This document shows positions 230-64,000 of a DNA stretch of 64,000 nt, piece by piece; position 1 is the stretch's first letter; every line of letters begins with the position of its first letter. The DNA comes from Eledone cirrhosa. Lineage: Eukaryota. A program made the position numbers and the translations under genes. The notes under the pieces were generated by a model. The model was not told the origin of the DNA, made no database searches, and saw only the letters and a program-made list of their open reading frames with translations. The stretch covers positions 14,446,001 through 14,510,000 of the forward strand of contig OZ024744.1 in assembly GCA_964016885.1 (NCBI GenBank), read 5' to 3'.

Positions 230-296
230 AAAGATAAACAACAACAACAGTAACAAGAACAAGATGTGACAATATCGCAGATTAGTATTATTTATT
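230..296 (-). terminator. Putative polyadenylation signal and downstream GU-rich element of the minus-strand gene
   Basis: AATAAA on the minus strand at 296-291 (tttatt on +) lies about 140 nt after the stop codon. About 30 nt further on is a GU/U-rich tract, TCTTGTTCTTGTTACTGTTGTTGTTGTTT (about 264-236). This is the canonical metazoan cleavage/polyA layout. Confidence 0.6.
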
Positions 297-438: not shown

Positions 439-477
439 TTAATCAACCTGGGGGTTGTTTTTAAACAAATATTCAGC
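439..477 (-). CDS. AK7: Terminal coding exon of adenylate kinase 7 (end of the Dpy-30-like dimerisation motif), [12 protein letters not shown]
   Basis: On the minus strand, TTTTTTCTTTTTCTTCAACAG| is followed by GCT GAA TAT TTG TTT AAA AAC AAC CCC CAG GTT GAT TAA (phase 0). The peptide matches the metazoan AK7 C-terminus as I recall it (human ...[21 protein letters not shown]). A polyA signal follows. The exon is too short for the ORF track, and only 12 residues support the identity. Confidence 0.8.
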   Translation of the reverse strand, partial: [12 protein letters not shown]

Positions 478-500
478 CTGTTGAAGAAAAAGAAAAAATA
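478..500 (-). promoter_or_regulatory. 3' splice acceptor: polypyrimidine tract plus CAG
   Basis: Minus-strand TATTTTTTCTTTTTCTTCAACAG ends at 478, directly before the AEYLFKNNP codons. Confidence 0.8.
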
Positions 501-506
501 TAAATA

Positions 507-510
<4 letters not shown>

Positions 511-577
<67 letters not shown>

Positions 578-599
578 TATACATATATATGTATATATA
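511..599. repeat. (AT)n microsatellite
   Basis: Perfect (AT)30 at 511-570, then interrupted by C/G substitutions to about 599. Confidence 0.97.
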
Positions 600-616
600 A
601 CAGAGTTTTTTTCAAA

Positions 617-740
617 CGCGTGCATTATGAAATGTATGATATATGTATGATATATGCGTGTGTGTGCATGAATGTTTGTATGTGTGTGCATGAATATAAA
701 TTTATGTAGTGAAAGATATGTGTGCGATATATGCATGTGT
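617..740. repeat. Degenerate (AT/GT/ATGT)n microsatellite-like tract
   Basis: Alternating purine-pyrimidine runs such as gtatgatatatgtatgatatatgcgtgtgtgtgcatgaatg and gtatgtgtgtgcatgaat. Confidence 0.7.
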
Positions 741-810
741 CTAGTGAGAACATAGATTTAATTTGAAAGAAAGAATGAAACTGGCCTTTGGGATGTTGGA
801 ATATTGGCTT

Positions 811-1560
811 TTAAATTAACCATTCTGGTGTATTTCTTTCCATTCAATTATTGATCCTAGGTTTTAATTGCTTGATTAAGAGGGCTTCCTTAATTCTCAG
901 TGTGCCTCTGCCGTGTTCAGTAGCTAAGATTGTGGTGGTAATGTTGTCCTGGTTCCCACATTTGATGATGTCTTCCCGGAAGGAAGAGGAGTTGGTGTTA
1001 ACAGGCTCTTTAATACGGAGATGTAACAGTCAAATAGTGCTGCCTATGTAAAATAGATTGCACTTGTTACATTCTAGCCTGTATACTACGTAGGTACGTA
1101 GGCAACAATTAGTGTTGAGGATAGGGAAATTGGGAAGGGTTCATCTGTTATCATCGTTAGGGGGTTGCCTTGTGGTGAGGCATTTTCGCAGGGAAGGTCT
1201 AGAGTGACCTAGTTTGATATTGAGGCCCTCTCTTTTGATGGCTTTGCATATGGGATTGGTGGTTTCCTCGGTGAGATGTGGGATCTTGAAGAAGCAACTG
1301 TTGTTTGTGTTGGTCCGGTCTCTGGGTCTGGGGTTTCATCTTGGGGTGGGGAAGGAAGCTGGGTAGCCATTAATCTCTAGTACCTTGTGGAATCGTCTGA
1401 TATGGGTAGCTCTATTAACAGCATCACTGCATTGGTTGCATATGCGAACCATTTCATTGAAGATGTACCCTCTTTTAGAGCTGGAGGAGGGGGGCAGATT
1501 TGTCATGCACAAACAGGTCTCTGCTGGCCACCTTCAGTAGAAATTGGTGTGGAATTCAGT
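811..1560 (-). mobile_element. Decayed, 5'-truncated Penelope-like element (RT C-terminal/thumb region, linker and GIY-YIG endonuclease), non-functional
   Basis: My translation of one minus frame, 1482 to 811, reads SSKRGYIFNEMVRICNQCS...FHKVLEINGYP...FFKIPHL...R*TLPNFPILNTNCCLRTYVVYRLECNKCNLFYIGSTI*LLHLRIKE...LRIKEALLIKQLKPRINN*MERNTPEWLI*. It shows the NGYP thumb motif (1360-1371), VVY (1081-1089), CxxC, YIG (1042-1050) and the terminal E..I...P.IN motif typical of PLE GIY-YIG domains. A frameshifted FY(R)..ASRDLFVHDKSA segment lies at about 1545-1495. In-frame TGA stops are at 1336-1338, 1141-1143, 1030-1032 and 844-846. Confidence 0.88.
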
Positions 1561-1659
1561 TGTCAGAAATGTTCAAGGGTTTAGTAACATTTGTAGAGCA
1601 TAAAAACATTGGCTACTGGACTTGGTAGTGCTTTGTTTGAGTTTATCATAGTAGTAAAC

Positions 1660-2000
1660 CGGTCTGGTGGAGAAAGTGGGGGGGGGGGCAGTCGGTGGTA
1701 AGTGTATCTGGACAGGCAAGGGGTCAGGAGAAGGATGTAGTGTGGGTAGGGGTAGGAGTGGTTAGTGGGTGGGAGTGAAGTAGAAGAAGAAGGGGCATAA
1801 TGACCATAGTGTGGTAGGGTAAGTCTATTTATAGATGGAGCTTATAGGCTGAAGGAGTATTTCGAAGTGAAGAATTAAAAGTAAAAAGTAGATTGTATAG
1901 AAGAAAAGGAGCAGATAGTTAAATAAAGTTGTAAATAAGGTAAAATAAGATCAGGTAAAATATAGGGGTTTAAAAATAGGTAGAGTGGATTATATGGGTG
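1660..2000. other. Purine-rich, strand-asymmetric low-complexity segment with a G11 run and G-tracts
   Basis: G11 at 1678-1688, GGGTAGGGGTAGGAGTGGTTAGTGGGTGGG at about 1744-1773, then A/G-rich sequence with few C on the + strand up to about 2000. Confidence 0.55.
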
Positions 2001-2311
2001 GTAATCAGTGATGAATTATATGTACTATGTGTATGTATACTGCATATGTAGAGGCATACATAAAAGTAGACTGGGAAGTTATAGAAGATTTTACACTGAA
2101 ATGTATGAATAAAACAGTTAAATATTACTTTAATGAGTCATCATCATCATCATTTCATTTTAAGTCCACTTTTCCCAGCTTGCTAGGGTGGGACGGGAAC
2201 TGATTCTGGCTTGATTTCTACAGCTGGATGCCCTTCCTAACACCAACCACATTTACAGTGAGTGCTGGGTGCTTTTTTGCCGTGGCACCTCCATGACCAC
2301 TTTGCAGTTGA

Positions 2312-2337
2312 ATGATAGGGACCCCAGTCCCTATCAT
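2312..2337. repeat. Perfect 11-bp inverted repeat (hairpin) inside the SINE
   Basis: ATGATAGGGAC (2312-2322), loop CCCA, then GTCCCTATCAT (2327-2337). Confidence 0.9.
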
Positions 2338-2417
2338 CTCATTGCTACAGCTGAGTAAACTGGAGCAATGTGAAATAAAGTGTCTGGCTCAAGGAAACAA
2401 CACATCGCCCGGTCTGA

Positions 2418-2471
2418 GAATTGAACTCACAACCTTTCGATTGCAAGGCCAATGCTCTAACCACTATGCCA
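2418..2471 (-). promoter_or_regulatory. Internal RNA polymerase III type-2 promoter (A box and B box) of the SINE
   Basis: The A box TGGCATAGTGG fits TRGCNNARYGG. The B-box-like GAGTTCAATTC lies in a T-arm-like hairpin, TGAG-TTCAATT-CTCA. The boxes are 32 nt apart, as in tRNA genes. Confidence 0.75.
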
Positions 2472-5400
2472 TGTGCCTCCATTGCAAGGCCAATGCTCAA
2501 ACCACTAAGTCATGTGCGTCCATTGCAAGGCCAGTGCTCTAACCACTAAGTCATGTGCGTCCATTGCAAGGCCAGTGCTCTAACCACTAAGTCATGTGCG
2601 TCCATTGCAAGGCCAGTGCTCTAACCACTAATTCATGTGCCTCCATTGCAAGGCCAGTGCTCTAACCACTAAGTCATGTGGCTCCATTGCAAGGCCAATG
2701 CTCTAACCACTAAGCCATGTCCCTCCATTGCAAGGCCAATGCTCTAACCAATAAGCCATGTAACTCTATTGCAAGGTCAATACGCTAACCACTAAGCCAT
2801 GTGCCTCCATTGCAAAGCCAATGCTCTAACCACTAAGCCATGTGCCTCCAATACAAGGCCAATGCTCTAACCACTAAGCAATGTACCTCCATTGCAAGGC
2901 CAATGCTCTAACCACTAAGTCATGTGCCTCCATTGCAAGGCCAATGCTCTAACCACTAAGCCATGTGCCTCCAATGCAAGGCCAATGCTCTAACCACTAA
3001 ACCATGTGCCTCCATTGCAAGACCAATGCTCTAACCACTAAGCCATGTGCCTCCATTGCAAGTCAATGCTCTAACCACTAAGCCATGTGCCTCCATTGCA
3101 AGGCCAATGCTCTAACCACTAAGCCATGTGCCTCCATTGCAACACCAATGCTCTAACAACTAAGCCATGTGCCTCTATTGCAAGGCCAATGTTCTAACCA
3201 CTAAGTCATGTGCCTCCATTGCAAGGCCAATACTCTAACCACTAAGCCATGTGCCTCCATTGCAAGGCCAATGCTCTAACCACTAAGCCATGTGCCTACA
3301 TTGCAAGGCCAATGCTCTAACCACTAAGCCAAGTGCCTCCATTGCAAGGCCAATGCTCTAACCATTAAGTCATGTGCCTCCATTGCAAGGTGAATGCTCT
3401 AACCACTAAGTCATGTACCTCCATTGCAAGGCCAATGCTCTAACCACTAAGAGATGTGCCTCCATTGCAAGGCCAATGCTCTAACCACTAAGTCATGTGC
3501 CTCCATTGCAAGGCCAATGCTCTAACCACTAAGTCATGTGGCTCCATTGCAAGGCCAATGCTCTAACCACTAAGCCATGTGCCTCCATTGCAAGGCCAAT
3601 GCTCTAACCACTAAGCCATGTGCCTCCATTGCAAGGCCAATGCTCTAACCCCTAAGCCATGTGCCTCCATTGCAAGGCCAATGCTCTAACCACTAAGTCA
3701 TGTGCCTCCATTGCAACGCTAATGCTCTAACCACTAAGTCATGTGCCTCCATTGCAAGGCCAATGCTCTAACCACTAAGTCGTGTGCCTCCATTGCAAGG
3801 CCAATGCTCTAACCACTAAGCCATGTGCCGCAATTGCAAGGCCAATACTCTAACCACTAAGCCATGTGCCTCCATTGCAAGGCCAATGTTCTAACCACTA
3901 AGCCATGTGCCTCCATTGCAATGCCAATGCTCTAACCACTAAGCCATGTGCCTCCATTGCAAGGCCAATGCTCTAACCACTAAACCATGTGCATCCATTG
4001 CAAGGCCAATGCTCTAACCACTAAACCATGTGCCTACATTGCAAGTCCAATGCTCTAACCACTAAGCCATGTGCCTCCATTGCAAGGTCAATGCGATAAC
4101 CACTAAGCCATGTGCCTCCATTGCAAAGACAATGCTCTAACCACTAAGCCATGTGCCTCCATTACAAGGCCAATGCTCTAACCACTAAGCCATGTGCCTC
4201 CATTGCAAGGCCAATGCTCTAAACAATAAGCCATGTGCCTCCATTTCAAGGCCATTGCTCTAACCACTAAGCCATGTGCCTCCATTGCAAGGCCAACGTT
4301 CTAACCACTAAGCATTGTGCCCCCATTGCAAGGCCAATGCTCTAACCACTAAGTCATGTGCCTCCATTGCAAGGCCAATGCTCTAACCACTAAGCCATGT
4401 GCCTCCATTGCAAGGTCAATGCTCTAACCACTAAGTCATGTGCCTCCATTGCAAGGCCAATGCTCTAATCACTAAGTCATGTGCCTCCATTGCAAGGCCA
4501 ATGCTCTAACCACTAAGTCATGTGCCTCCATTGAAAGGCCAATGCTGTAACCCCTAAGCCATGTACCTCCATTGCAAGGCCAATGCTCTAACCACTAAGC
4601 CATGTGCCTCCATTGCAAGGTCAATGCTCTAACCACTAAGTCATGTGCCTCCATTGCAAGGCCAATGCTCTAATCACTAAGTCATGTGCCTCCATTGCAA
4701 GGCCAATGCTCTAACCACTAAGTCATGTGCCTCCATTGAAAGGCCAATGCTGTAACCACTAAGCCATGTACCTCCATTGCAAGGCCAATGCTCTAACCAC
4801 TAAGCCATGTGCCTCCATTACAAGGCCAATGCTCTAAACACTAAGCCATGTGCCTCCACTGCAAGACCAATGCTCTAACCACTAAGTCATCTGCCTCCAT
4901 TGCAAGGCCAATGCTCTAACCACTAAGTCACCTGCCTCCATTGCAAGGCCAATGCTCTAACCACTAAACCATGTGCCTCCATTGCAAGGCCAATGCTCTA
5001 ACCACTAAGCCATGTGCTTCCATTGCAAGGCCAATGCTCTGACCACTAAGCCATGTGCCTCCATTGCAAGTCAATGCTCTAACCACTAAGCCATGTGCCT
5101 CCATTGCAAGGCCAATGCTCTAACCACTAAGTCATGTGCCTCCATTGCAAGGCCAATGCTCTAACCACTAAGCCATGTGCCTCCTTTGCAATGCCAATGC
5201 TCTAACCACTAAGCCATGTGCCTCCATTGCAAGGCCAATGCTCTAACCACTAAACCATGTGCATCCATTGTAAGGCTAATGCTCTAACCACTAAGCAATG
5301 TGCCTCCATTGCAAGGCCAATGCTCTAACCACTAAGCCATGTGCCTCCATTGCAAGGCCAATGTTCTAACCACTAAGTCATGTGCCTCCATTGCAAGGCC

Positions 5401-8400
5401 AATGCTCTAACCACTAAGCCATGTGCCTCCATTGCAAGGCCAATGATCTAACCACTAAGCAATGTGCCTACATTGCAAAACCAATGCTCTAACCACTAAG
5501 CCATGTGCCTCCATTGCAAGGCCAATGCTCTAACCACTAAGTCATGTGCCTCCATTGCAAGGCGAATGCTCTAACCACTAAGTCATGTCCCTCCATTGCA
5601 AGGCCAATGCTCTAACCACTAAGCCATGTGCCTCCATTGCAAGGCCAATGCTCTAACCACTAAATCATGTGCCTCCATTGCAAGGCCAATGCACTAACCA
5701 CTAAGTCATGTGCCTCCATTGCAAGGCCAATGCTCTAACCACTAAGCCATGTGCCTCACTTGCAAGGCCAATGCTCTAACCACTAAGCCATGTGACTCCA
5801 TTGCAAGGCCAATCCTCTTACCACTAAGCCATGTGCCTCCATTGCAAGGCCAATACTTTAACCACTAAGTCATGTGCCTCCATTGCAACGCCAATGCTCT
5901 AACCACTAAGTCATGTGCCTCCATTGCAAGGCCAATGCTCTAACCACTAAGTCATGCGCCTCCATTGCAAGGCCAATGCTCTAACCACTAAGCCATGTGC
6001 CTCCATTGCAAGGCCAATGCTCTAACCACTAAGCCATGTGCCTCCATTACAAGGCCAATGCTCTAAACACTAAGCCATGTGCCTCCATTGCAAGACCAAT
6101 GCTCTAACCACTAAGTCATCTGCCTCCATTGCAAGGCCAATGCTCTAACCACTAAGTCACCTGCCTCCATTGCAAGGCCAATGCTCTAACCACTAAACCA
6201 TGTGCCTCCATTGCAAGGCCAATGCTCTAACCACTAAGCCATGTGCCTCCATTGCAAGGCCAATGCTCTAACCACTAAGTCATGTGCCTCCATTGCTAGG
6301 CCAATGCTCTGACCACTAAGCCATGTGCCTCCATTGCAAGTCAATGCTCTAACCACTAAGCCATGTGCCTCCATTGCAAGGCCAATGCTCTAACCACTAA
6401 GTCATGTGCCTCCATTGCAAGGCCAATGCTCTAACCACTAAGCCATGTGCCTCCTTTGCAATGCCAATGCTCTAACCACTAAGCCATGTGCCTCCATTGC
6501 AAGGCCAATGCTCTAACCACTAAACCATGTGCATCCATTGTAAGGCTAATGCTCTAACCACTAAGCCATGTGCCTCCATTGCAAGGCCAATGCCCTAACC
6601 ACTAAGCCATGTGCCTCCATTGCAAGGCCAATGTTCTAACCACTAAGTCATGTGCCTCCATTGCAAGGCCAATGCTCTAACCACTAAGCCATGTGCCTCC
6701 ATTGCAAGGCTAATGATCTAACCACTAAGCAATGTGCCTACATTGCAAAACCATTGCTCTAACCACTAAGCCATGTGCCTCCATTGCAAGGCCAATGCTC
6801 TAACCACTAAGTCATGTGCCTCCATTGCAAGGCGAATGCTCTAACCACTAACTCATGTACCTCCATTGCAAGGCCAATGCTCTAACCACTAAGCCATGTG
6901 CCTCCATTGCAAGGCCAATGCTCTAACCACTAAATCATGTGCCTCCATTGCAAGGCCAATGCACTAACCACTAAGTCATATGCCTCCATTGCAAGGCCAA
7001 TGCTCTAACCACTAAGCCATGTGCCTCCATTGCAAGGCCAATGCTCTAACTACTAAGCCATGTGCCTCCATTGCAAGGCCAATGCTCTAACCACTAAGCC
7101 ATGTGCCTCCATTGCAAGGCCAATGCTCTAACCATTAAGCCATGTGCCTCCATTGCAAGGCCAATGCTCTAACCACTAAGCCATGTGCCTCCCTTGCAAG
7201 GCCAAAGCTCTAACCACTAAGTCATGTGACTCCATTGCAAGGCCAATGCTCTAACCGCTAAGCCATGTGCATCCATTGCAAAGCCAATGCTCTAACCACT
7301 AAGTCATGTGCCTCCATTGCAAGGCCAATGCTCTAACCACTAAGTCATGTACCTCCATTGCAAGGCCAATACTCTAACCACTAAGTCATGTCCCTCCATT
7401 GCAAGGCCAATGCTCTAACCACTAAGCCATGTGCCTCCATTGCAAGGCCAATGCTCTAACCACTAAATCATGTGCCTCCATTGCAAGGCCAATGCACTAA
7501 CCACTAAGTCATGTGCCTCCATTGCAAGGCCAATGCTCTAACCACTAAGCCATGTGCCTCACTTGCAAGGCCAATGCTCTAACCACTAAGCCATGTGACT
7601 CCATTGCAAGGCCAATCCTCTTACCACTAAGCCATGTGCCTCCATTGCAAGGCCAATACTTTAACCACTAAGTCATGTGCCTCCATTGCAACGCCAATGC
7701 TCTAACCACTAAGTCATGTGCCTCCATTGCAAGGCCAATGCTCTAACCACTAAGTCATGCGCCTCCATTGCAAGGCCAATGCTCTAACCACTAAGCCATG
7801 TGCCTCCATTGCAAGGCCAATGCTCTAACCACTAAGCCATGTGCCTCCATTACAAGGCCAATGCTCTAAACACTAAGCCATGTGCCTCCATTGCAAGACC
7901 AATGCTCTAACCACTAAGTCATCTGCCTCCATTGCAAGGCCAATGCTCTAACCACTAAGTCACCTGCCTCCATTGCAAGGCCAATGCTCTAACCACTAAA
8001 CCATGTGCCTCCATTGCAAGGCCAATGCTCTAACCACTAAGCCATGTGCCTCCATTGCAAGGCCAATGCTCTAACCACTAAGTCATGTGCCTCCATTGCT
8101 AGGCCAATGCTCTGACCACTAAGCCATGTGCCTCCATTGCAAGTCAATGCTCTAACCACTAAGCCATGTGCCTCCATTGCAAGGCCAATGCTCTAACCAC
8201 TAAGTCATGTGCCTCCATTGCAAGGCCAATGCTCTAACCACTAAGCCATGTGCCTCCTTTGCAATGCCAATGCTCTAACCACTAAGCCATGTGCCTCCAT
8301 TGCAAGGCCAATGCTCTAACCACTAAACCATGTGCATCCATTGTAAGGCTAATGCTCTAACCACTAAGCCATGTGCCTCCATTGCAAGGCCAATGCCCTA

Positions 8401-11400
8401 ACCACTAAGCCATGTGCCTCCATTGCAAGGCCAATGTTCTAACCACTAAGTCATGTGCCTCCATTGCAAGGCCAATGCTCTAACCACTAAGCCATGTGCC
8501 TCCATTGCAAGGCTAATGATCTAACCACTAAGCAATGTGCCTACATTGCAAAACCATTGCTCTAACCACTAAGCCATGTGCCTCCATTGCAAGGCCAATG
8601 CTCTAACCACTAAGTCATGTGCCTACATTGCAAAACCATTGCTCTAACCACTAAGCCATGTGCCTCCATTGCAAGGCCAATGCTCTAACCACTAAGTCAT
8701 GTGCCTCCATTGCAAGGCGAATGCTCTAACCACTAACTCATGTACCTCCATTGCAAGGCCAATGCTCTAACCACTAAGCCATGTGCCTCCATTGCAAGGC
8801 CAATGCTCTAACCACTAAGCCATGTGCCTCCATTGCAAGGCCAATGCTCTAACTACTAAGCCATGTGCCTCCATTGCAAGGCCAATGCTCTAACCACTAA
8901 GCCATGTGCCTCCATTGCAAGGCCAATGCTCTAACCATTAAGCCATGTGCCTCCATTGCAAGGCCAATGCTCTAACCACTAAGCCATGTGCCTCCCTTGC
9001 AAGGCCAAAGCTCTAACCACTAAGTCATGTGACTCCATTGCAAGGCCAATGCTCTAACCGCTAAGCCATGTGCATCCATTGCAAAGCCAATGCTCTAACC
9101 ACTAAGTCATGTGCCTCCATTGCAAGGCCAATGCTCTAACCACTAAGTCATGTACCTCCATTGCAAGGCCAATACTCTAACCACTAAGTCATGTCCCTCC
9201 ATTGCAAGGCCAATGCTCTAACCACTAAGCCATGTGCCTCCATTGCAAGGCCAATGCTCTAACCACTAAATCATGTGCCTCCATTGCAAGGCCAATGCAC
9301 TAACCACTAAGTCATGTGCCTCCATTGCAAGGCCAATGCTCTAACCACTAAGCCATGTGCCTCACTTGCAAGGCCAATGCTCTAACCACTAAGCCATGTG
9401 ACTCCATTGCAAGGCCAATCCTCTTACCACTAAGCCATGTGCCTCCATTGCAAGGCCAATACTTTAACCACTAAGTCATGTGCCTCCATTGCAACGCCAA
9501 TGCTCTAACCACTAAGTCATGTGCCTCCATTGCAAGGCCAATGCTCTAACCACTAAGTCATGCGCCTCCATTGCAAGGCCAATGCTCTAACCACTAAGCC
9601 ATGTGCCTCCATTGCAAGGCCAATGCTCTAACCACTAAGCCATGTGCCTCCATTACAAGGCCAATGCTCTAAACACTAAGCCATGTGCCTCCATTGCAAG
9701 ACCAATGCTCTAACCACTAAGTCATCTGCCTCCATTGCAAGGCCAATGCTCTAACCACTAAGTCACCTGCCTCCATTGCAAGGCCAATGCTCTAACCACT
9801 AAACCATGTGCCTCCATTGCAAGGCCAATGCTCTAACCACTAAGCCATGTGCCTCCATTGCAAGGCCAATGCTCTAACCACTAAGTCATGTGCCTCCATT
9901 GCTAGGCCAATGCTCTGACCACTAAGCCATGTGCCTCCATTGCAAGTCAATGCTCTAACCACTAAGCCATGTGCCTCCATTGCAAGGCCAATGCTCTAAC
10001 CACTAAGTCATGTGCCTCCATTGCAAGGCCAATGCTCTAACCACTAAGCCATGTGCCTCCTTTGCAATGCCAATGCTCTAACCACTAAGCCATGTGCCTC
10101 CATTGCAAGGCCAATGCTCTAACCACTAAACCATGTGCATCCATTGTAAGGCTAATGCTCTAACCACTAAGCCATGTGCCTCCATTGCAAGGCCAATGCC
10201 CTAACCACTAAGCCATGTGCCTCCATTGCAAGGCCAATGTTCTAACCACTAAGTCATGTGCCTCCATTGCAAGGCCAATGCTCTAACCACTAAGCCATGT
10301 GCCTCCATTGCAAGGCTAATGATCTAACCACTAAGCAATGTGCCTACATTGCAAAACCATTGCTCTAACCACTAAGCCATGTGCCTCCATTGCAAGGCCA
10401 ATGCTCTAACCACTAAGTCATGTGCCTACATTGCAAAACCATTGCTCTAACCACTAAGCCATGTGCCTCCATTGCAAGGCCAATGCTCTAACCACTAAGT
10501 CATGTGCCTCCATTGCAAGGCGAATGCTCTAACCACTAACTCATGTACCTCCATTGCAAGGCCAATGCTCTAACCACTAAGCCATGTGCCTCCATTGCAA
10601 GGCCAATGCTCTAACCACTAAGCCATGTGACTCCATTGCAAGGCCAATCCTCTTACCACTAAGCCATGTGCCTCCATTGCAAGGCCAATACTTTAACCAC
10701 TAAGTCATGTGCCTCCATTGCAACGCCAATGCTCTAACCACTAAGTCATGTGCCTCCATTGCAAGGCCAATGCTCTAACCACTAAGTCATGCGCCTCCAT
10801 TGCAAGGCCAATGCTCTAACCACTAAGCCATGTGCCTCCATTGCAAGGCCAATGCTCTAACCACTAAGCCATGTGCCTCCATTACAAGGCCAATGCTCTA
10901 AACACTAAGCCATGTGCCTCCATTGCAAGACCAATGCTCTAACCACTAAGTCATCTGCCTCCATTGCAAGGCCAATGCTCTAACCACTAAGTCACCTGCC
11001 TCCATTGCAAGGCCAATGCTCTAACCACTAAACCATGTGCCTCCATTGCAAGGCCAATGCTCTAACCACTAAGCCATGTGCCTCCATTGCAAGGCCAATG
11101 CTCTAACCACTAAGTCATGTGCCTCCATTGCTAGGCCAATGCTCTGACCACTAAGCCATGTGCCTCCATTGCAAGTCAATGCTCTAACCACTAAGCCATG
11201 TGCCTCCATTGCAAGGCCAATGCTCTAACCACTAAGTCATGTGCCTCCATTGCAAGGCCAATGCTCTAACCACTAAGCCATGTGCCTCCTTTGCAATGCC
11301 AATGCTCTAACCACTAAGCCATGTGCCTCCATTGCAAGGCCAATGCTCTAACCACTAAACCATGTGCATCCATTGTAAGGCTAATGCTCTAACCACTAAG

Positions 11401-53400: not shown

Positions 53401-56400
53401 CTAAACACTAAGCCATGTGCCACCATTGCAAGGCCAATGCTCTAACCACTAAACCATCTGCCTCCGTTGCAAGGCCAATGCTCTAACCATTAAGCCATCT
53501 GCCTCCATTGCAAGGCCAATGCTCTAACCACTAAGCCATGTGCCTCCATTGCAAGGCCAATGCTCTAACCAATAAGCCAAGTGCCTCCATTGCAAGGCCA
53601 ATACTCTAACCACTAAGCCATGTGCCTCCATTGCAAGGCCAATGCACTAACCAATAAGCCATGTGCCTCCATTGCAAGGCCAATGCTCTAACCACTAAGC
53701 AATGTGCCTCCATTGCAAGGCCAATGCTCTAACCACTAAGCCATGTTCCTCCATTGCAAGGACAATGCTCTAACCACTAAGTCATGTTCCTCCATTGCAA
53801 AGCTAATGCTCTAACCACTAAGCCATGTGCCCCCATTGCAAGGCCAATGCTCTAACCACTAAGCCATGTGCCACCATTGCAAGGCCAATGCTCTAACCAC
53901 TAAACCATCTGCCTCCGTTGCAAGGCCAATGCTCTAACCACTATGCCATCTGCCTCCATTGCAAGGCCAATGCTCTAACCACTAAGCCATGTGCCTCCAT
54001 TGCAAGGCGAATGCTCTAACCAATAAGCCATGTGCCTCCATTGCAAGGCCAATGTTCTAACCACTAAGTCATGTGCCTCCATTGCAAGGCAAATGCTCTA
54101 ACCACTAAGTCATGTGCCTCCATTGCAAGGCCAATGCTCTAACCACTAAGACATATGCCTCCATTGCAAGGCCAATACTCTAACCACTAAGTCATGTGCC
54201 TCCATTGCAAGGTCAATGCTCTAACCACTAAGACATATGCCTCCATTGCAAGGCCAATGCTCTAACCACTAAGTCATGTGCCTCCATTGCAAGGTCAATG
54301 CTCTAACCACTAAGCCATGTGCCTCCATTGCAAGGCCAATGCTCTAACCACTAAGCCATGTGCCTCCATTGCAAGGCCAATTCTCTAACCACTAAGCCAT
54401 GTGCCTCCATTGCAAGGCCAATGCTCTAACCACTAAGTCATGTGCCTCCATTGCAAGCCCAATGCTCTAACCACTAAACCATCTGCCTCCATTGCAAGGC
54501 CAATGCTCTAACCACTAAGCCATGTGCCTCCATTGCAAGGCCAATGCTCTAACCACTAAGTCATGTGCCTCCATTGCAAGGCCAATGCTCTAACCACTAA
54601 ACCATCTGCCTCCATTGCAAGGCCAATGCTCTAACCACTAAGTCATGTGCCTCCCATTGCAAGGCCAATGCTCTAACCACTAAGCCATGTGCCCACATTG
54701 TAAGGCCAATGCTCTAACCACTAAGCCATGTTCCTCCATTGCAAGGCCAATGCTCTAACCACTAAGTCATGTTCTTCCATTGCAAATCCAATGCTCTAAC
54801 CACTAAGCCATGTATCTCCATTGCAAGGCCAATGCTCTAACCACTAAGCCATGTGCCACCATTGCAAAGCCAATGCTCTAACCACTATGTCATGTGCCAC
54901 CATTGCAAGGCCAATGCTCTAACCACTAAACCATCTGCCTCCGTTGCAAGGCCAATGCTCTAACCACTAAGCCATCTGCCTCCATTGCAAGGCCAATGCT
55001 CTAACCACTAAGCCATGTGCCTCCATTGCAAGGCCAATGCTCTAACCACTAAGCCATGTGCCTCCACTGCAAGGCCAATGCTCTAACCACTAAGTCATGT
55101 GCCTCCATTGCAAGGCCAATGCTCTAACCACTAAGTCATGTGCCTCCATTGCAAGGCCAATGCTCTAACCACTAAGCCCTGTGCCTCCATTGCAAGGCCA
55201 ATGCTCTAACAACTAAGCCATGTGCCTCCATTGCAAGGCCAACGCTCTAACCACTAAGCCATGTGCCTCCATTGCAAGGCCAATGCTCTAACCACTAAGC
55301 CATGTGCCTCCATTGCAAGGCCAATGCTCTAACCACTAAGCCATGTGCCTTCATTGCAAGGCCAATGCTCTAACAACTAAGCCATGTGCCTCCATTGCAA
55401 GGCCAACGCTCTAACCACTAAGCCATGTGCCTCCATTGCAAGGCCAATGCTCTAACCACTAAGCCATGTGCCTCCATTGCAAGGCCAATGCTCTAACCAC
55501 TAAGCCATGTGCCTCCATTGCAAGGCCAATGTTCTAACCACTAATTCATGTGCCTCCATTACAAGGCCAACGCTCTAACCACTAAGCCATGTGCCTCCAT
55601 TGCAAGGCCAATGCTCTAACCACTAAGCCATGTGCCTCCATTGCAAGGCCAATGCTCTAACCACTAAGCCATGTATCTCCATTGCAAGGACAATGCTCTA
55701 ACCACTAAGTCATGTGCCTCCATTGCAAGGCCAATGCTCTAACCACTAAGCCATGTGCCTCCATTGCAAGGCCAATGCTCTAACCACTAAGCCATGTGCC
55801 TCCATTGCAAGGCCAATGCTCTAACCACTAAGCCATGTGCCTCTACTGCAAGGCCAATGCTCTAACCACTAAGTCATGTGCCTCCATTGCAAGGCCAATG
55901 CTCTAACCACTAAGTCATGTGCCTCCATTGCAAGGCCAATGCTCTAACCACTAAGCCATGTGCCTCCATTGCAAGGCCAATGCTCTAACAACTAAGCCAT
56001 GTGCCTCCATTGCAAAGCCAACGCTCTAACCACTAAGCCATGTGCCTCCATTGCAAGGCCAATGCTCTAACCACTAAGCCATGTGCCTCCATTGCAAGGC
56101 CAATGCTCTAACCACTAAGCCATGTGCCTCCATTGCAAGGCCAATGCTCTAACCACTAAGCCATGTGCCTCCATTGCAAGGCCAATGTTCTAACCACTAA
56201 GTCATGTGCCTCCATTGCAAGGCCAATGCTCTAACCACTAAGTCATGTGCCTCCATTGCAAGGCCAATGCTCTAACCACTAAACCATCTGCCTCCATTGC
56301 AAGGCCAATGCTCTAACCACTAAGTCATGTGCCTCCATTGCAAGGCCAATGCTCTAACCACTAAGCCATGTGCCTCCATTGCAAGGCCAATACTCTAACC

Positions 56401-59400
56401 ACTAAGTCATGTGCCTCCATTGCAAGGCCAATGCTCTAACCACTAAGTCATGTGCCTCCATTGCAAGGCCAATGCTCTAACCACTAAGTCATGTGCCTCC
56501 ATTGCAAGGCCAATGCTCTAACCACTAAGTCATGTGCCTCCATTGCAAGGCCAATGCTCTAACAACTAAGTCATGTGCCTCCATTGCAAGGCCAATGGTC
56601 TAACCACTAAGTCATGCGCCTCCATTGCAAGGCCAATGCTCTAACCACTAAGCCATGTGCCTCGATTGCAAGGCCAATGCTCTAACCACTAAGCCATGTG
56701 CCTCCATTGCAAGGCCAATTCTCTAACCACTAAGCCATGTGCCTCCATTGCAAGGCCAATGCTCTAACCACTAAGTCATGTGCCTCCATTGCAAGGCCAA
56801 TGCTCTAACCACTAAGCCATGTGCCTCCACTGCAAGGCCAATGCTCTAACCACTAAGTCATGTGCCTCCATTGCAAGGCCAATGCTCTAACCACTAAGTC
56901 ATGTGCCTCCATTGCAAGGCCAATGCTCTAACCACTAAGCCATGTGCCTCCATTGCAAGGCCAATGCTCTAACAACTAAGCCATGTGCCTCCATTGCAAA
57001 GCCAACGCTCTAACCACTAAGCCATGTGCCTCCATTGCAAGGCCAATGCTCTAACCACTAAGCCATGTGCCTCCATTGCAAGGCCAATGCTCTAACCACT
57101 AAGCCATGTGCCTCCATTGCAAGGCCAATGTTCTAACCACTAAGTCATGTGCCTCCATTGCAAGGCCAATGCTCTAACCACTAAGTCATGTGCCTCCATT
57201 GCAAGGCCAATGCTCTAACCACTAAACCATCTGCCTCCATTGCAAGGCCAATGCTCTAACCACTAAGTCATGTGCCTCCATTGCAAGGCCAATGCTCTAA
57301 CCACTAAGCCATGTGCCTCCATTGCAAGGCCAATACTCTAACCACTAAGTCATGTGCCTCCATTGCAAGGCCAATGCTCTAACCACTAAGTCATGTGCCT
57401 CCATTGCAAGGTCAATGCTCTAACCACTAAGTCATGTGCCTCCATTGCAAGGCCAATGCTCTAACCACTAAGTTATGTGCCTCCATTGCAAGGCCAATGC
57501 TCTAACCACTAAGTCATGTGCCTCCATTGCAAGGCCAATGCTCTAACCACTAAGTCATGCGCCTCCATTGCAAGGCCAATGCTCTAACCACTAAGCCATG
57601 TGCCTCGATTGCAAGGCCAATGCTCTAACCACTAAGCCATGTGCCTCCATTGCAAGGCCAATTCTCTAACCACTAAGCCATGTGCCTCCATTGCAAGGCC
57701 AATGCTCTAACCACTAAGTCATGTGCCTCCATTGCAAGACCAATGCTCTAACCACTAAACCATCTGCCTCCATTGCAAGGCCAATGCTCTAACCACTAAG
57801 CCATGTGCCTCCATTGCAAGGCCAATGCTCCAACCACTAAGTCATGTGCCTCCATTGCAAGGCCAATGCTCTAACCACTAAACCATCTGCCTCCATTGCA
57901 AGGCCAATGCTCTAACCACTAAGCCATGTGCCTCCATTGCAAGGCCAATGCTCTAACCACTAAGCCATGTTCCTCCATTGCAAGGCCAATGCTCTAACCA
58001 CTAAGCCATGTTCCTCCATTGCAAATCCAATGCTCTAACCACTAAGCCATGTGCCTCCATTGCAAGGCCAATGCTCTAACCACTAAGTCATGTGCCTCCA
58101 TTGCAAGGCCAATGCTCTAACCACTAAGTCATGTGCCTCCATTGCAAGGCCAATGCTCTAACCACTAAGTCATGTGCCTCCATTGCAAGGCCAATGCTCT
58201 AACCACTAAGTCATGCGCCTCCATTGCAAGGCCAATGCTCTAACCACTAAGCCATGTGCCTCGATTGCAAGGCCAATGCTCTAACCACTAAGCCATGTGC
58301 CTCCATTGCAAGGCCAATTCTCTAACCACTAAGCCATGTGCCTCCATTGCAAGGCCAATGCTCTAACCACTAAGTCATGTGCCTCCATTGCAAGGCCAAT
58401 GCTCTAACCACTAAGCCATGTGCCTCCACTGCAAGGCCAATGCTCTAACCACTAAGTCATGTGCCTCCATTGCAAGGCCAATGCTCTAACCACTAAGTCA
58501 TGTGCCTCCATTGCAAGGCCAATGATCTAACCACTAAGCCATGTGCCTCCATTGCAAGGCCAATGCTCTAACCACTAAGCCATGTGCCTCCATTGCAAGG
58601 CCAATGTTCTAACCACTAAGTCATGTGCCTCCATTGCAAGGCCAATGCTCTAACCACTAAGTCATGTGCCTCCATTGCAAGGCCAATGCTCTAACCACTA
58701 AACCATCTGCCTCCATTGCAAGGCCAATGCTCTAACCACTAAGTCATGTGCCTCCATTGCAAGGCCAATGCTCTAACCACTAAGCCATGTGCCTCCATTG
58801 CAAGGCCAATACTCTAACCACTAAGTCATGTGCCTCCATTGCAAGGCCAATGCTCTAACCACTAAGTCATGTGCCTCCATTGCAAGGTCAATGCTCTAAC
58901 CACTAAGTCATGTGCCTCCATTGCAAGGCCAATGCTCTAACCACTAAGTCATGTTCCTCCATTGCAAATCCAATGCTCTAACCACTAAGCCATGTGCCTC
59001 CATTGCAAGGCCAATGCTCTAACCACTAAGTCATGTGCCTCCATTGCAAGGCCAATGCTCTAACCACTAAGTCATGCGCCTCCATTGCAAGGCCAATGCT
59101 CTAACCACTAAGTCATGTGCCTCCATTGCAAGGCCAATGCTCTAACCACTAAGTCATGTGCCTCCATTGCAAGGTCAATGCTCTAACCACTAAGTCATGT
59201 TCCTCCATTGCAAGGCCAATGCTCTAACCACTAAGTCATGTTCCTCCATTGCAAATCCAATGCTCTAACCACTAAGCCATGTGCCTCCATTGCAAGGCCA
59301 ATGCTCTAACCACTAAGTCATGTGCCTCCATTGCAAGGCCAATGCTCTAACCACTAAGTCATGTGCCTCCATTGCAAGGCCAATGCTCTAACCACTAAGT

Positions 59401-62400
59401 CATGTGCCTCCATTGCAAGGCCAATGCTCTAACCACTAAGTCATGCGCCTCCATTGCAAGGCCAATGCTCTAACCACTAAGCCATGTGCCTCGATTGCAA
59501 GGCCAATGCTCTAACCACTAAGCCATGTGCCTCCATTGCAAGGCCAATTCTCTAACCACTAAGCCATGTGCCTCCATTGCAAGGCCAATGCTCTAACCAC
59601 TAAGTCATGTGCCTCCATTGCAAGGCCAATGCTCTAACCACTAAGCCATGTGCCTCCACTGCAAGGCCAATGCTCTAACCACTAAGTCATGTGCCTCCAT
59701 TGCAAGGCCAATGCTCTAACCACTAAGTCATGTGCCTCCATTGCAAGGCCAATGCTCTAACCACTAAGCCATGTGCCTCCATTGCAAGGCCAATGCTCTA
59801 ACCACTAAGCCATGTGCCTCCATTGCAAGGCCAATGTTCTAACCACTAAGTCATGTGCCTCCATTGCAAGGCCAATGCTCTAACCACTAAGTCATGTGCC
59901 TCCATTGCAAGGCCAATGCTCTAACCACTAAACCATCTGCCTCCATTGCAAGGCCAATGCTCTAACCACTAAGTCATGTGCCTCCATTGCAAGGCCAATG
60001 CTCTAACCACTAAGCCATGTGCCTCCATTGCAAGGCCAATACTCTAACCACTAAGTCATGTGCCTCCATTGCAAGGCCAATGCTCTAACCACTAAGTCAT
60101 GTGCCTCCATTGCAAGGTCAATGCTCTAACCACTAAGTCATGTGCCTCCATTGCAAGGCCAATGCTCTAACCACTAAGTTATGTGCCTCCATTGCAAGGC
60201 CAATGCTCTAACCACTAAGTCATGTGCCTCCATTGCAAGGCCAATGCTCTAACCACTAAGTCATGCGCCTCCATTGCAAGGCCAATGCTCTAACCACTAA
60301 GCCATGTGCCTCGATTGCAAGGCCAATGCTCTAACCACTAAGCCATGTGCCTCCATTGCAAGGCCAATTCTCTAACCACTAAGCCATGTGCCTCCATTGC
60401 AAGGCCAATGCTCTAACCACTAAGTCATGTGCCTCCATTGCAAGGCCAATGCTCTAACCACTAAGTCATGTGCCTCCATTGCAAGGCCAATGCTCTAACC
60501 ACTAAACCATCTGCCTCCATTGCAAGGCCAATGCTCTAACCACTAAGCCATGTGCCTCCATTGCAAGGCCAATGCTCCAACCACTAAGTCATGTGCCTCC
60601 ATTGCAAGGCCAATGCTCTAACCACTAAACCATCTGCCTCCATTGCAAGGCCAATGCTCTAACCACTAAGCCATGTGCCTCCATTGCAAGGCCAATGGTC
60701 TAACCACTAAGCCATGTTCCTCCATTGCAAGGCCAATGCTCTAACCACTAAGTCATGTTCCTCCATTGCAAATCCAATGCTCTAACCACTAAGCCATGTG
60801 CCTCCATTGCAAGGCCAATGCTCTAACCACTAAGCCATGTGCCACCATTGCAAGGTCAATGCTCTAAACACTAAGCCATGTGTCACCATTGCAAGGCCAA
60901 TGCTCTAACCACTAAACCATCTGCCTCCGTTGCAAGGCCAATGCTCTAACCATTAAGCCATCTGCCTCCATTGCAAGGCCAATGCTCTAACCACTAAGCC
61001 ATGTGCCTCCATTGCAAGGCCAATGCTCTAACCAATAAGCCAAGTGCCTCCATTGCAAGGCCAATACTCTAACCACTAAGCCATGTGCCTCCATTGCAAG
61101 GCCAAAGCACTAACCAATAAGCCATGTGCCTCCATTGCAAGGCCAATGCTCTAACCACTAAGCAATGTGCCTCCATTGCAAGGCCAATGCTCTAACCACT
61201 AAGCCATGTTCCTCCATTGCAAGGACAATGCTCTAACCACTAAGTCATGTTCCTCCATTGCAAAGCTAATGCTCTAACCACTAAGCCATGTGCCCCCATT
61301 GCAAGGCCAATGCTCTAACCACTAAGCCATGTGCCACCATTGCAAGGCCAATGCTCTAACCACTAAACCATCTGCCTCCGTTGCAAGGCCAATGCTCTAA
61401 CCACTATGCCATCTGCCTCCATTGCAAGGCCAATGCTCTAACCACTAAGCCATGTGCCTCCATTGCAAGGCGAATGCTCTAACCAATAAGCCATGTGCCT
61501 CCATTGCAAGGCCAATGTTCTAACCACTAAGTCATGTGCCTCCATTGCAAGGCCAATGCTCTAACCACTAAGTCATGTGCCTCCATTGCAAGGCCAATGC
61601 TCTAACCACTAAGACATATGCCTCCATTGCAAGGCCAATACTCTAACCACTAAGTCATGTGCCTCCATTGCAAGGTCAATGCTCTAACCACTAAGACATA
61701 TGCCTCCATTGCAAGGCCAATGCTCTAACCACTAAGTCATGTGCCTCCATTGCAAGGTCAATGCTCTAACCACTAAGTCATGTGCCTCCATTGCAAGGCC
61801 AATGCTCTAACCACTAAGTCATGTGCCTACATTGCAAGGCCAATGCTCTAACCACTAAGTCATGTGCCTCCATTGCAAGGCCAATGCTCTAACCACTAAG
61901 CCATGTGCCTCCATTGCAAGGCCAATGCTCTAACCACTAAGTCATGTGCCTCCATTGCAAGGCCAATGCTCTAACCACTAAACCATCTGCCTCCATTGCA
62001 AGGCCAATGCTCTAACCACTAAGTCATGTGCCCCCCATTGCAAGGCCAATGCTCTAACCACTAAGCCATGTGCCTCCATTGTAAGGCCAATGCTCTAACC
62101 ACTAAGCCATGTTCCTCCATTGCAAGGCCAATGCTCTAACCACTAAGTCATGTTCCTCCATTGCAAATCCAATGCTCTAACCACTAAGCCATGTGCCTCC
62201 ATTGCAAGGCCAATGCTCTAACCACTAAGCCATGTGCCACCATTGCAAAGCCAATGCTCTAACCACTATGTCATGTGCCACCATTGCAAGGCCAATGCTC
62301 TAACCACTAAACCATCTGCCTCCGTTGCAAGGCCAATGCTCTAACCACTAAGCCATCTGCCTCCATTGCAAGGCCAATGCTCTAACCACTAAGCCATGTG

Positions 62401-64000
62401 CCTGCATTGCAAGGCCAATGCTCTAACCACTAAGCCATGTGCCTCCACTGCAAGGCCAATGCTCTAACCACTAAGTCATGTGCCTCCATTGCAAGGCCAA
62501 TGCTCTAACCACTAAGTCATGTGCCTCCATTGCAAGGCCAATGCTCTAACCACTAAGCCCTGTGCCTCCATTGCAAGGCCAATGCTCTAACAACTAAGCC
62601 ATGTGCCTCCATTGCAAGGCCAACGCTCTAACCACTAAGCCATGTGCCTCCATTGCAAGGCCAATGCTCTAACCACTAAGCCATGTGCCTCCATTGCAAG
62701 GCCAATGCTCTAACCACTAAGCCATGTGCCTCCATTGCAAGGCCAATGCTCTAACAACTAAGCCATGTGCCTCCATTGCAAGGCCAACGCTCTAACCACT
62801 AAGCCATGTGCCTCCATTGCAAGGCCAATGCTCTAACCACTAAGCCATGTGCCTCCATTGCAAGGCCAATACTCTAACCACTAAGCCATGTGCCTCCATT
62901 GCAAGGCCAATGCTCTAACCACTAAGCCATGTGCTTCCATTCCAAGGCCAATGCTCTAACCACTAAGCCATGTGCCTCCATTGCAAGGCCAATGTTCTAA
63001 CCACTAATTCATGTGCCTCCATTACAAGGCCAACGCTCTAACCACTAAGCCATGTGCCTCCATTGCAAGGCCAATGCTCTAACCACTAAGCCATGTGCCT
63101 CCATTGCAAGGCCAATGCTCTAACCACTAAGCCATGTATCTCCATTGCAAGGACAATGCTCTAACCACTAAGTCATGTGCCTCCATTGCAAGGCCAATGC
63201 TCTAACCACTAAGCCATGTGCCTCCATTGCAAGGCCAATGCTCTAACCACTAAGCCATGTGCCTCCATTGCAAGGCCAATGCTCTAACCACTAAGCCATG
63301 TGCCTCCACTGCAAGGCCAATGCTCTAACCACTAAGTCATGTGCCTCCATTGCAAGGCCAATGCTCTAACCACTAAGTCATGTGCCTCCATTGCAAGGCC
63401 AATGCTCTAACCACTAAGCCATGTGCCTCCATTGCAAGGCCAATGCTCTAATAACTAAGCCATGTGCCTCCATTGCAAAGCCAACGCTCTAACCACTAAG
63501 CCATGTGCCTCCATTGCAAGGCCAATGCTCTAACCACTAAGCCATGTGCCTCCATTGCAAGGCCAATGCTCTAACCACTAAGCCATGTGCCTCCATTGCA
63601 AGGCCAATGCTCTAACCACTAAGCCATGTGCCTCCATTGCAAGGCCAATGTTCTAACCACTAAGTCATGTGCCTCCATTGCAAGGCCAATGCTCTAACCA
63701 CTAAGTCATGTGCCTCCATTGCAAGGCCAATGCTCTAACCACTAAACCATCTGCCTCCATTGCAAGGCCAATGCTCTAACCACTAAGTCATGTGCCTCCA
63801 TTGCAAGGCCAATGCTCTAACCACTAAGCCATGTGCCTCCATTGCAAGGCCAATACTCTAACCACTAAGTCATGTGCCTCCATTGCAAGGCCAATGCTCT
63901 AACCACTAAGCCATGTATCTCCATTGCAAGGCCAATGCTCTAACCACTAAGTCATGTGCCTCCATTGCAAGGCCAATGCTCTAACCACTAAGTCATGTGC
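2440..64000 (-). repeat. 41-bp tandem satellite, about 1,500 head-to-tail copies, derived from the tRNA-like SINE head; continues past the window end
   Basis: The + strand consensus is ATTGCAAGGCCAATGCTCTAACCACTAAG(C/T)CATGTGCCTCC (41 nt), or GGAGGCACATG(G/A)CTTAGTGGTTAGAGCATTGGCCTTGCAAT on the minus strand. The span of 61,561 bp divided by 41 gives about 1,500 copies. Most units carry 0-3 substitutions, with occasional 40- or 42-bp units. I saw no spacers, inversions or foreign insertions. Confidence 0.99.

Follow-up and report, generated by a model that had tools for sequence, protein, structure and literature searches.

The stretch of DNA considered here – the window – comprises 64,000 nucleotides of the octopod Eledone cirrhosa, positions 14,446,001-14,510,000 of contig OZ024744.1 (hereafter C28) in a 3.0-Gb genome (assembly GCA_964016885.1). 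Its minus strand carries the terminal coding exon of AK7, which encodes a motile-cilium and sperm-flagellum protein, together with the 3′ part of the preceding intron and the 41-bp tandem array within it (Table 1). An earlier note, made from the letters of the window, had recognized a giant satellite-filled last intron and suggested convergence with the flagellar genes of the Drosophila Y. Here, we place the window within the complete gene and its chromosome, and argue that AK7 is probably an intact gene whose introns have been filled by locally grown minisatellites, as a passive effect of its place in a satellite-rich belt of C28, the likely Z chromosome.

Table 1. Features of the window, satellite arrays of the AK7 introns, and tandem heads of the same short interspersed nuclear element (SINE) at other loci. 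Positions written with two dots are those of the window.
Feature	Location	Strand	Remarks
AK7 terminal coding exon (17 of 17)	439..477	-	12 codons and TAA; completes Dpy-30 motif
AATAAA, likely polyadenylation signal (predicted)	291..296	-	GU-rich stretch downstream, ~262-235
Pyrimidine tract and CAG acceptor	478..497	-	acceptor at 478
(AT)n microsatellite	498..599	.	50 copies; directly upstream of pyrimidine tract
Broken GIY-YIG endonuclease remnant, dispersed repeat	847..1110	-	PF01541, E 1.4e-4, 22.5 bits against a cut-off of 22.6
tRNA-like SINE body and tail	2136..2439	-	B-box part, central part, ATG-repeat tail; very high genomic copy
41-bp tandem array	2440..64000	-	SINE's first 41 nt (A-box half); continues past window to C28:14,651,642
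Intron 16, 3′ part	478..64000	-	full intron reaches C28:14,652,744, beyond window
41-mer array	AK7 intron 16		203,203 bp
26-mer array	AK7 intron 13		151.5 kb
48-mer array	AK7 intron 11		28 kb
25-mer array	AK7 intron 9		~257 kb
43-mer array	AK7 intron 7
48-mer array	AK7 intron 6		~32 kb; differs from that of intron 11
22-mer and 89-mer arrays	AK7 intron 4		~300 kb
Tandem SINE heads	C7, C22		2 copies each (script count)
Tandem SINE heads	C24		7 copies
Tandem SINE heads	C27		~14 copies
Tandem SINE heads	C25:19.656-19.662 Mb		~120 copies, 50-nt unit

The AK7 gene and its last intron

The acceptor, 12-codon exon and polyadenylation signal that had been read at the start of the window are all present, and the 64-kb window holds no further AK7 exon upstream, as had also been said. 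The penultimate exon had been expected beyond the window on the minus strand, and exon 16 was placed there at C28:14,652,745-14,652,903, separated from exon 17 by an intron of 206,267 bp. It has 53 codons, ends in ...RPDDPVDYL followed by GTAGGT, and is in frame with exon 17, intron 16 being phase 0 on both sides. In a profile search, positions 1-33 of the Dpy-30 motif match C28:14,652,745-14,652,843 on the minus strand, and the motif is completed by exon 17 as proposed. The identification of the gene also holds: exon 16 has its best match, at 92% over 53 amino acids, in the AK7 proteins of Octopus bimaculoides and O. sinensis, exon 17 is identical at 11 of 12 positions to residues 696-707 of O. 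bimaculoides AK7 – in which the Dpy-30 motif occupies 663-704 – and the exon 17 region has a single match in the whole genome.

What required revision was scale. The intron is a giant satellite intron, and the earlier figures of more than 63 kb and about 1,500 repeats were lower bounds set by the window, which contains 1,501.9 copies; the complete array has 4,958 copies and zero N. Singling out the last intron was likewise right as to its size, but introns 4 and 9 are larger still, and the array ends in, and derives from, a SINE.

The O. bimaculoides AK7 protein, which served as both search query and reference, gave 17 matches. Between 15.58 and 14.65 Mb the minus strand of C28 carries 16 of them, arranged collinearly; the only match elsewhere is on C19 (19.6 bits, 25% identity). 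With exon boundaries placed by hand on the genomic DNA, the model has 17 exons encoding 706 amino acids in 2,121 nt with zero internal stops, GT-AG ends at 16 of 16 introns, and identity to O. bimaculoides AK7 at 534 of 706 residues. The adenylate-kinase domain with its P-loop and the C-terminal Dpy-30 motif are both present, and best matches are to AK7. The gene spans 1,137,023 bp, of which 99.8% is intron, with four giant introns: intron 4 (332,793 bp), intron 9 (266,590 bp), intron 16, and intron 13 (152,217 bp).

On its sequence, then, AK7 is an intact single-copy gene at a single locus, the copy number resting on a genome search with a stricter first pass; because the single-copy reading frame is intact, we predict that it is a working gene. 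The concern that exon 17 might be an orphan duplicate, or that a second AK7 exists, is ruled out by the single collinear locus and the weakness of the C19 match. The ATG is preceded, at a distance of 32 bp, by an RFX-type palindrome (C28:15,583,493-15,583,505), against a background of 25 matches in the 1.74 Mb examined, largely satellite. Near the 3′ end of intron 16, the GIY-YIG remnant has elevated read depth and is likely a Penelope-like element. Two runs of contigs aligned over 100-2440 have no joint at 478 among the matches listed, a result that bears neither way on expression.

Satellites in the AK7 introns

Each large intron of AK7 holds its own satellite, with unit sizes of 41, 26, 48, 25, 43, 48, 22 and 89 bp (Table 1). 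Together they make up ~87% of the gene, whose first 464 kb were read continuously and whose introns 4, 6 and 9 were examined through 10-kb samples. The array in intron 16 is varied, with 513 distinct 41-mers among 4,783 and a mean divergence of 3.7%; higher-order periods occur locally, and exact duplicates reach ~4.9 kb at most. This unit variety and the shortness of exact duplicates argue against an expansion made by the assembler.

The 5′-splice-site-like motif GTRAG occurs on the sense strand in most units of two arrays, at 31 per kb in the 26-mer of intron 13 (C28:14.68-14.83 Mb) and 38 per kb in the 22-mer of intron 4 (C28:15.21-15.51 Mb). As far as sequence goes, such units might be bound by U1, protecting the transcript from premature polyadenylation, or might act as decoys.

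Origin of the 41-mer from a SINE

Read on the sense strand, the last 41-mer unit continues directly into ~300 bp of highly abundant sequence, for which summed read depth across two runs is 1-3 million. The start of this element matches Rfam tRNA positions 8-63, weakly (21.5 bits, E 0.055, against a gathering score of 29). Because the array runs straight into the remainder of the element, we identify the 41-mer as the first 41 nt of a tRNA-like SINE, and by this continuity of sequence the array derives from the SINE head: the unit is part of a dispersed SINE and is uninterrupted with the rest of it, as in other SINE-derived satellites. The element may resemble named octopus SINE families of CORE type.

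Exact 22-mers spanning the junction between units number 2,518 genome-wide (control 0), 2,479 of them in the array of AK7 intron 16. Bodies of the SINE are 94-96% identical at 10 of 11 other loci inspected. Tandem heads occur at several loci (Table 1), and five others (on C1, C2, C12, C15 and C18) have one full head behind a partial one. The SINE head is thus caught at stages from 2 to ~5,000 copies, and the two unit lengths, 41 and 50 nt, point to independent duplications. The 48-mer of intron 6 and an array at C28:29 Mb both match the body of the same SINE. At C27:18.83 Mb there is a longer run of the 41-nt unit that extends past the stretch examined, with no SINE body at its end.

The array is unlikely to be a cluster of Pol III genes, as it has a single B-box half, at the 3′ end, and its most variable column (40% changed) falls within the A-box-like part.

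C28 as the likely Z chromosome

C28 is 136.5 Mb long although numbered after the 22-Mb C27, and all five marker families taken from published octopus Z lists have a locus on it: AMN, which is Z-linked in O. vulgaris and conserved in location in O. sinensis (10.1101/2024.12.09.627507), and four families drawn from Table S6 of PMC10925132, which lists 19 Z genes. AMN and DDOST (OST48), the latter with matches on C28 only, are unambiguous markers, and the JIP/SPAG9, FHIP and SLC5 families, with a single C28 locus apiece plus autosomal paralogues, are informative at the level of family. From these markers, C28 is likely the Z chromosome. In O. bimaculoides the records that carry AMN and AK7 are identical in length (57,524,431), as they are in O. 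sinensis (32,976,114), and this sharing in two species makes AK7 likely an old Z gene.

C28 is 2.4-4.1 times longer than these Octopus records, and long minisatellite makes up ~45% of its sequence in the 19 samples. Older assemblies may have lost minisatellite arrays. A 16-bp G-rich unit fills the C28 samples at 127 and 134 Mb, 7 Mb apart near the contig end, and is possibly, to judge by these two samples, a multi-megabase subtelomeric array. Elsewhere in the assembly, C1-C4 are 379-443 Mb and the next contigs at most 135 Mb, likely reflecting a strongly fused karyotype.

Satellite load around AK7 and across chromosomes

We counted 10-kb samples in which at least half of the sequence is covered by minisatellite arrays of at least 1 kb. 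On C28, where exclusion of one 1-kb sample inside AK7 left 19, nine samples reach this load, compared with two of 20 on the same-sized C5 (Fisher p 0.014) and two of 18 on other autosomes; against all autosomal samples together (4/38) p is 0.005. Arrays start within a few kb of both ends of AK7, and across its flanks from 9.5 to 20.5 Mb, gene excluded, 12 of 20 10-kb samples are at least 90% long minisatellite, of many different units. Genes in the middle of C28 are compact, with spans – of matched domains only – of 13 kb for DDOST, 9.5 kb for FHIP, 43 kb for AMN (profile positions 1-246 only) and 49 kb for SLC5.

The non-satellite islands near AK7 contain several reverse-transcriptase (RT) remnants, and the domain matches among frames of the belt are of transposon type (RT, integrase, GIY-YIG, endonuclease, PIF1), apart from one proline-rich match and an RT/PHD chimera inside an AK7 intron. 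Below AK7, one such island holds a retroelement at C28:14.00 Mb whose RT/RNase H frame and RNase H/integrase frame are each ~570 amino acids long, and a PIF1 helicase remnant, likely of a Helitron, lies in a non-satellite island at C28:14.35 Mb.

Dynein heavy chains and UNC79

Dynein heavy-chain genes were measured from DHC_N2 to Dynein_C, using three domain searches with matches paired by contig, strand and order; axonemal and cytoplasmic types are pooled, and one lone C-terminal match is excluded. The 19 genes so defined span 36-453 kb (median 110 kb), and none is on C28, with a coding length ~4x that of AK7. Among 20 samples in four of the genes with long spans, 2 are wholly satellite, 4 partly so, and 14 not. 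In one autosomal span (C2:278.33-278.46 Mb) there are 23-mer and 48-mer arrays, G-rich on the gene strand, with two samples 50 kb apart wholly array-filled. Two dynein heavy-chain genes stand tail to tail at C19:6.70-6.84 Mb with matching exon scores, beside a lone C-terminal fragment at 6.84 Mb; either the locus underwent inverted duplication recently or it was duplicated in assembly.

UNC79, a non-ciliary gene, has exons at C2:414,327,024-414,827,510, a span of 500 kb situated 1.5-2 Mb from the end of the 416.3-Mb C2. It includes a 109-kb gap between profile-adjacent exons with GT and AG ends, and a 331-kb gap with minisatellites at both borders. Minisatellites lie beside most UNC79 exons, and one intron has a 400-bp run of a telomere-like hexamer.

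Strand asymmetry of the arrays

Among the nine AK7 arrays of at least 3 kb, eight are purine-rich on the sense strand, and eight have a lower acceptor-like score there than on the opposite strand, using a scoring model built from AK7's own 16 acceptors (sign test p 0.04; the test is post hoc, and the 22- and 89-mers are related). Acceptor-like sites on the sense strand do not exceed 0.25 per kb in any of the nine, compared with 0.65-3.1 in unique intron DNA, and two oppositely oriented AK7 arrays remain at ~1 kb. The sequences give a post hoc hint that the arrays that have grown large are those lacking acceptor-like sequence on the sense strand. Array G-skew reverses sign across the AK7 promoter, and this may point to divergent transcription or an origin of replication there. 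We dropped strand asymmetry as a proof of selection by splicing, in view of its post hoc probability, the mixed result of an autosomal check (below), and a skew reversal explicable by replication origin or direction.

Discussion

We favor, with a probability of roughly 0.7, an intact AK7 gene with introns filled by minisatellites that grew in place, as a passive effect of a satellite belt on the likely Z. The best reading of these sequences is that minisatellite growth is regional, strongest on the Z, and that a working gene has tolerated it. Seeds of local origin, of which one SINE family supplied at least two, have given rise to blocks of tens to hundreds of kb both inside and outside AK7, most densely in the outer part of C28.

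A SINE would have inserted into intron 16 and its first 41 nt then been duplicated in place, as at several other loci, after which unequal exchange or slippage would have amplified the intron 16 head to ~5,000 units; the other introns would have expanded likewise from different seeds. RNA polymerase II (Pol II) would traverse all of the arrays, with ordinary GT-AG splicing and exon definition joining the exons. Pol II advances 1-4 kb per minute, and at this rate transcription of AK7 would take ~5-19 hours. Two Octopus species show higher recombination toward chromosome tips and a Z without obvious reduction, and achiasmate females have been proposed (PMC13669787). Achiasmate females would leave the Z for longer in the recombining sex, and the distal position of AK7 and this longer residence in recombining males may thus both favor array growth.

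Several observations weigh against this interpretation. The 18 autosomal samples are mostly from mid-chromosome, so the contrast between Z and autosomes is inflated, and the four compact Z genes sit in the satellite-poorer middle of C28. The satellite share of AK7 (~87%) exceeds the mean of its flanks (64%), making a gene-specific extra possible. Searched against Pfam, 66 long frames out of 508 from the belt and 110 of its 111 exon-like candidates gave no host-gene match, a weak negative, and we thus make no claim that non-ciliary genes of the belt are equally swollen. Of the autosomal dynein heavy-chain genes, one on C2 (408 kb) does contain a large array, and the UNC79 gaps are known from their borders rather than their interiors. 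As to strand, autosomal arrays are mixed, with G-skew in 3/4 and acceptor asymmetry in 2/4, and the 48-mer of intron 11 carries AATAAA on the sense strand at ~18 per kb, counter to a strand filter.

A bolder proposal is unlikely: that locus-born minisatellites have more than doubled the size of the Z, turning sperm and cilia genes into megabase units like Y-loops on a recombining sex chromosome, where only arrays in the splicing-safe strand orientation grow. Also unlikely is a convergence on Y-loops proper, in which prolonged spermatocyte transcription of a sex-linked sperm or ciliary gene tolerates or uses satellite introns with the help of dedicated RNA-binding proteins. AK7 is likely sex-linked, is 99.8% intron with several satellite-filled introns like kl-3 and kl-5 (PMC6508621), and has a satellite share above its flanks, and the same source notes that loops appear to track Y linkage rather than the identity of the gene, as an effect of the sex chromosome would predict. 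Against it stand the 36-453 kb spans of 19 dynein heavy-chain genes, none on C28 despite their greater coding length, the giant introns of non-ciliary, autosomal UNC79, the abundance of arrays just outside AK7, and an octopus Z that recombines in males at a rate not found reduced (PMC13669787), unlike the Drosophila Y. The convergence among flagellar genes suggested in the earlier note is correspondingly weak, given the satellite load outside AK7, the compact dyneins and UNC79.

It is improbable that exon 17 is seldom used and that most transcripts end or splice earlier, through an alternative last exon or intronic polyadenylation. The intron 11 48-mer does contain AATAAA at 18.4 per kb on the sense strand and the 26-mer of intron 13 has 12.5 donor-like sites per kb, but exon 17 has 11 of 12 residues conserved, retains an acceptor, a stop codon and a likely polyadenylation signal, and completes the Dpy-30 motif, and no second copy was found in the genome. 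Least probable, by a small step, is an assembly artefact in which over-expanded or mis-joined arrays conceal much shorter introns: array lengths are those of the assembly, and the Octopus AK7 records are 57.5 and 33.0 Mb against 136.5 Mb, but there is zero N in the 464 kb read continuously, the varied 41-mer units have no exact duplicate too long for long reads to span, and exon order and phase are correct across every array.

Satellite-filled giant introns have been best studied on the Drosophila Y, with short simple repeats. The assembly of AK7 is complete over 1.14 Mb, with every exon in place. Because each big intron has a specific unit – 98% of exact 41-mer junctions lie in one array – probes for fluorescence in situ hybridization can be intron-specific, opening transcription timing, splicing order and length variation to direct test. 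The data also suggest that minisatellites can enlarge the Z chromosome of octopods and the tips of chromosomes.

Comparison with known systems

A literature search, with most subscription papers outside its scope, returned nothing on satellite-filled giant introns in octopods or a satellite-expanded cephalopod Z, and the available parts of PMC13122204, PMC13282606 and PMC13218726 have nothing on octopod satellite introns or an expanded Z.

In genes of the Y-loop type, satellite is transcribed in line with exons, forming lampbrush-like loops in spermatocytes that are served by dedicated RNA-binding proteins. AK7 can be likened to these genes by its anatomy alone. It shares with Drosophila kl-3, kl-5 and ks-1 (PMC6508621, PMC11207136) a likely sex linkage, a product that serves motile cilia or flagella, an intron share above 99% and several satellite introns, and it has both gigantic introns (four above 150 kb) and satellite composition. 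The chromosome differs: where Drosophila Y-loop genes lie on a non-recombining, sex-limited Y, markers point for AK7 to a Z (ZZ/Z0) that recombines in males. AK7 is also smaller (1.14 Mb against more than 4 Mb), its minisatellites are locus-born with 22-89-bp units rather than 5-bp simple satellites, the octopod dyneins are autosomal and mostly compact, and giant introns occur also in UNC79, which is neither ciliary nor sex-linked.

The 41-mer is closer to the SINE-derived satellites (sSat) of squamates (PMC10702118), which also arise from part of a SINE and are bounded by the remainder of the element. In both, to the extent of the available sSat text, short loci are many and long ones few, and long arrays are homogeneous with locus-specific subvariants. 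The 41-mer corresponds to the extreme 5′ A-box half whereas sSat units come from the B-box or a body segment, its 4,958 units exceed the longest sSat loci reported there (320 and more than 1,200), and it resides in an intron of an intact gene in a mollusc host.

The cephalopod Z described previously (PMC10925132; 10.1101/2024.12.09.627507) resembles C28 in the AMN, DDOST, JIP/SPAG9, FHIP and SLC5 loci. Its published signature is an excess of long interspersed nuclear elements, whereas C28 is distinguished by the long minisatellite that makes up nearly half of its sampled sequence.

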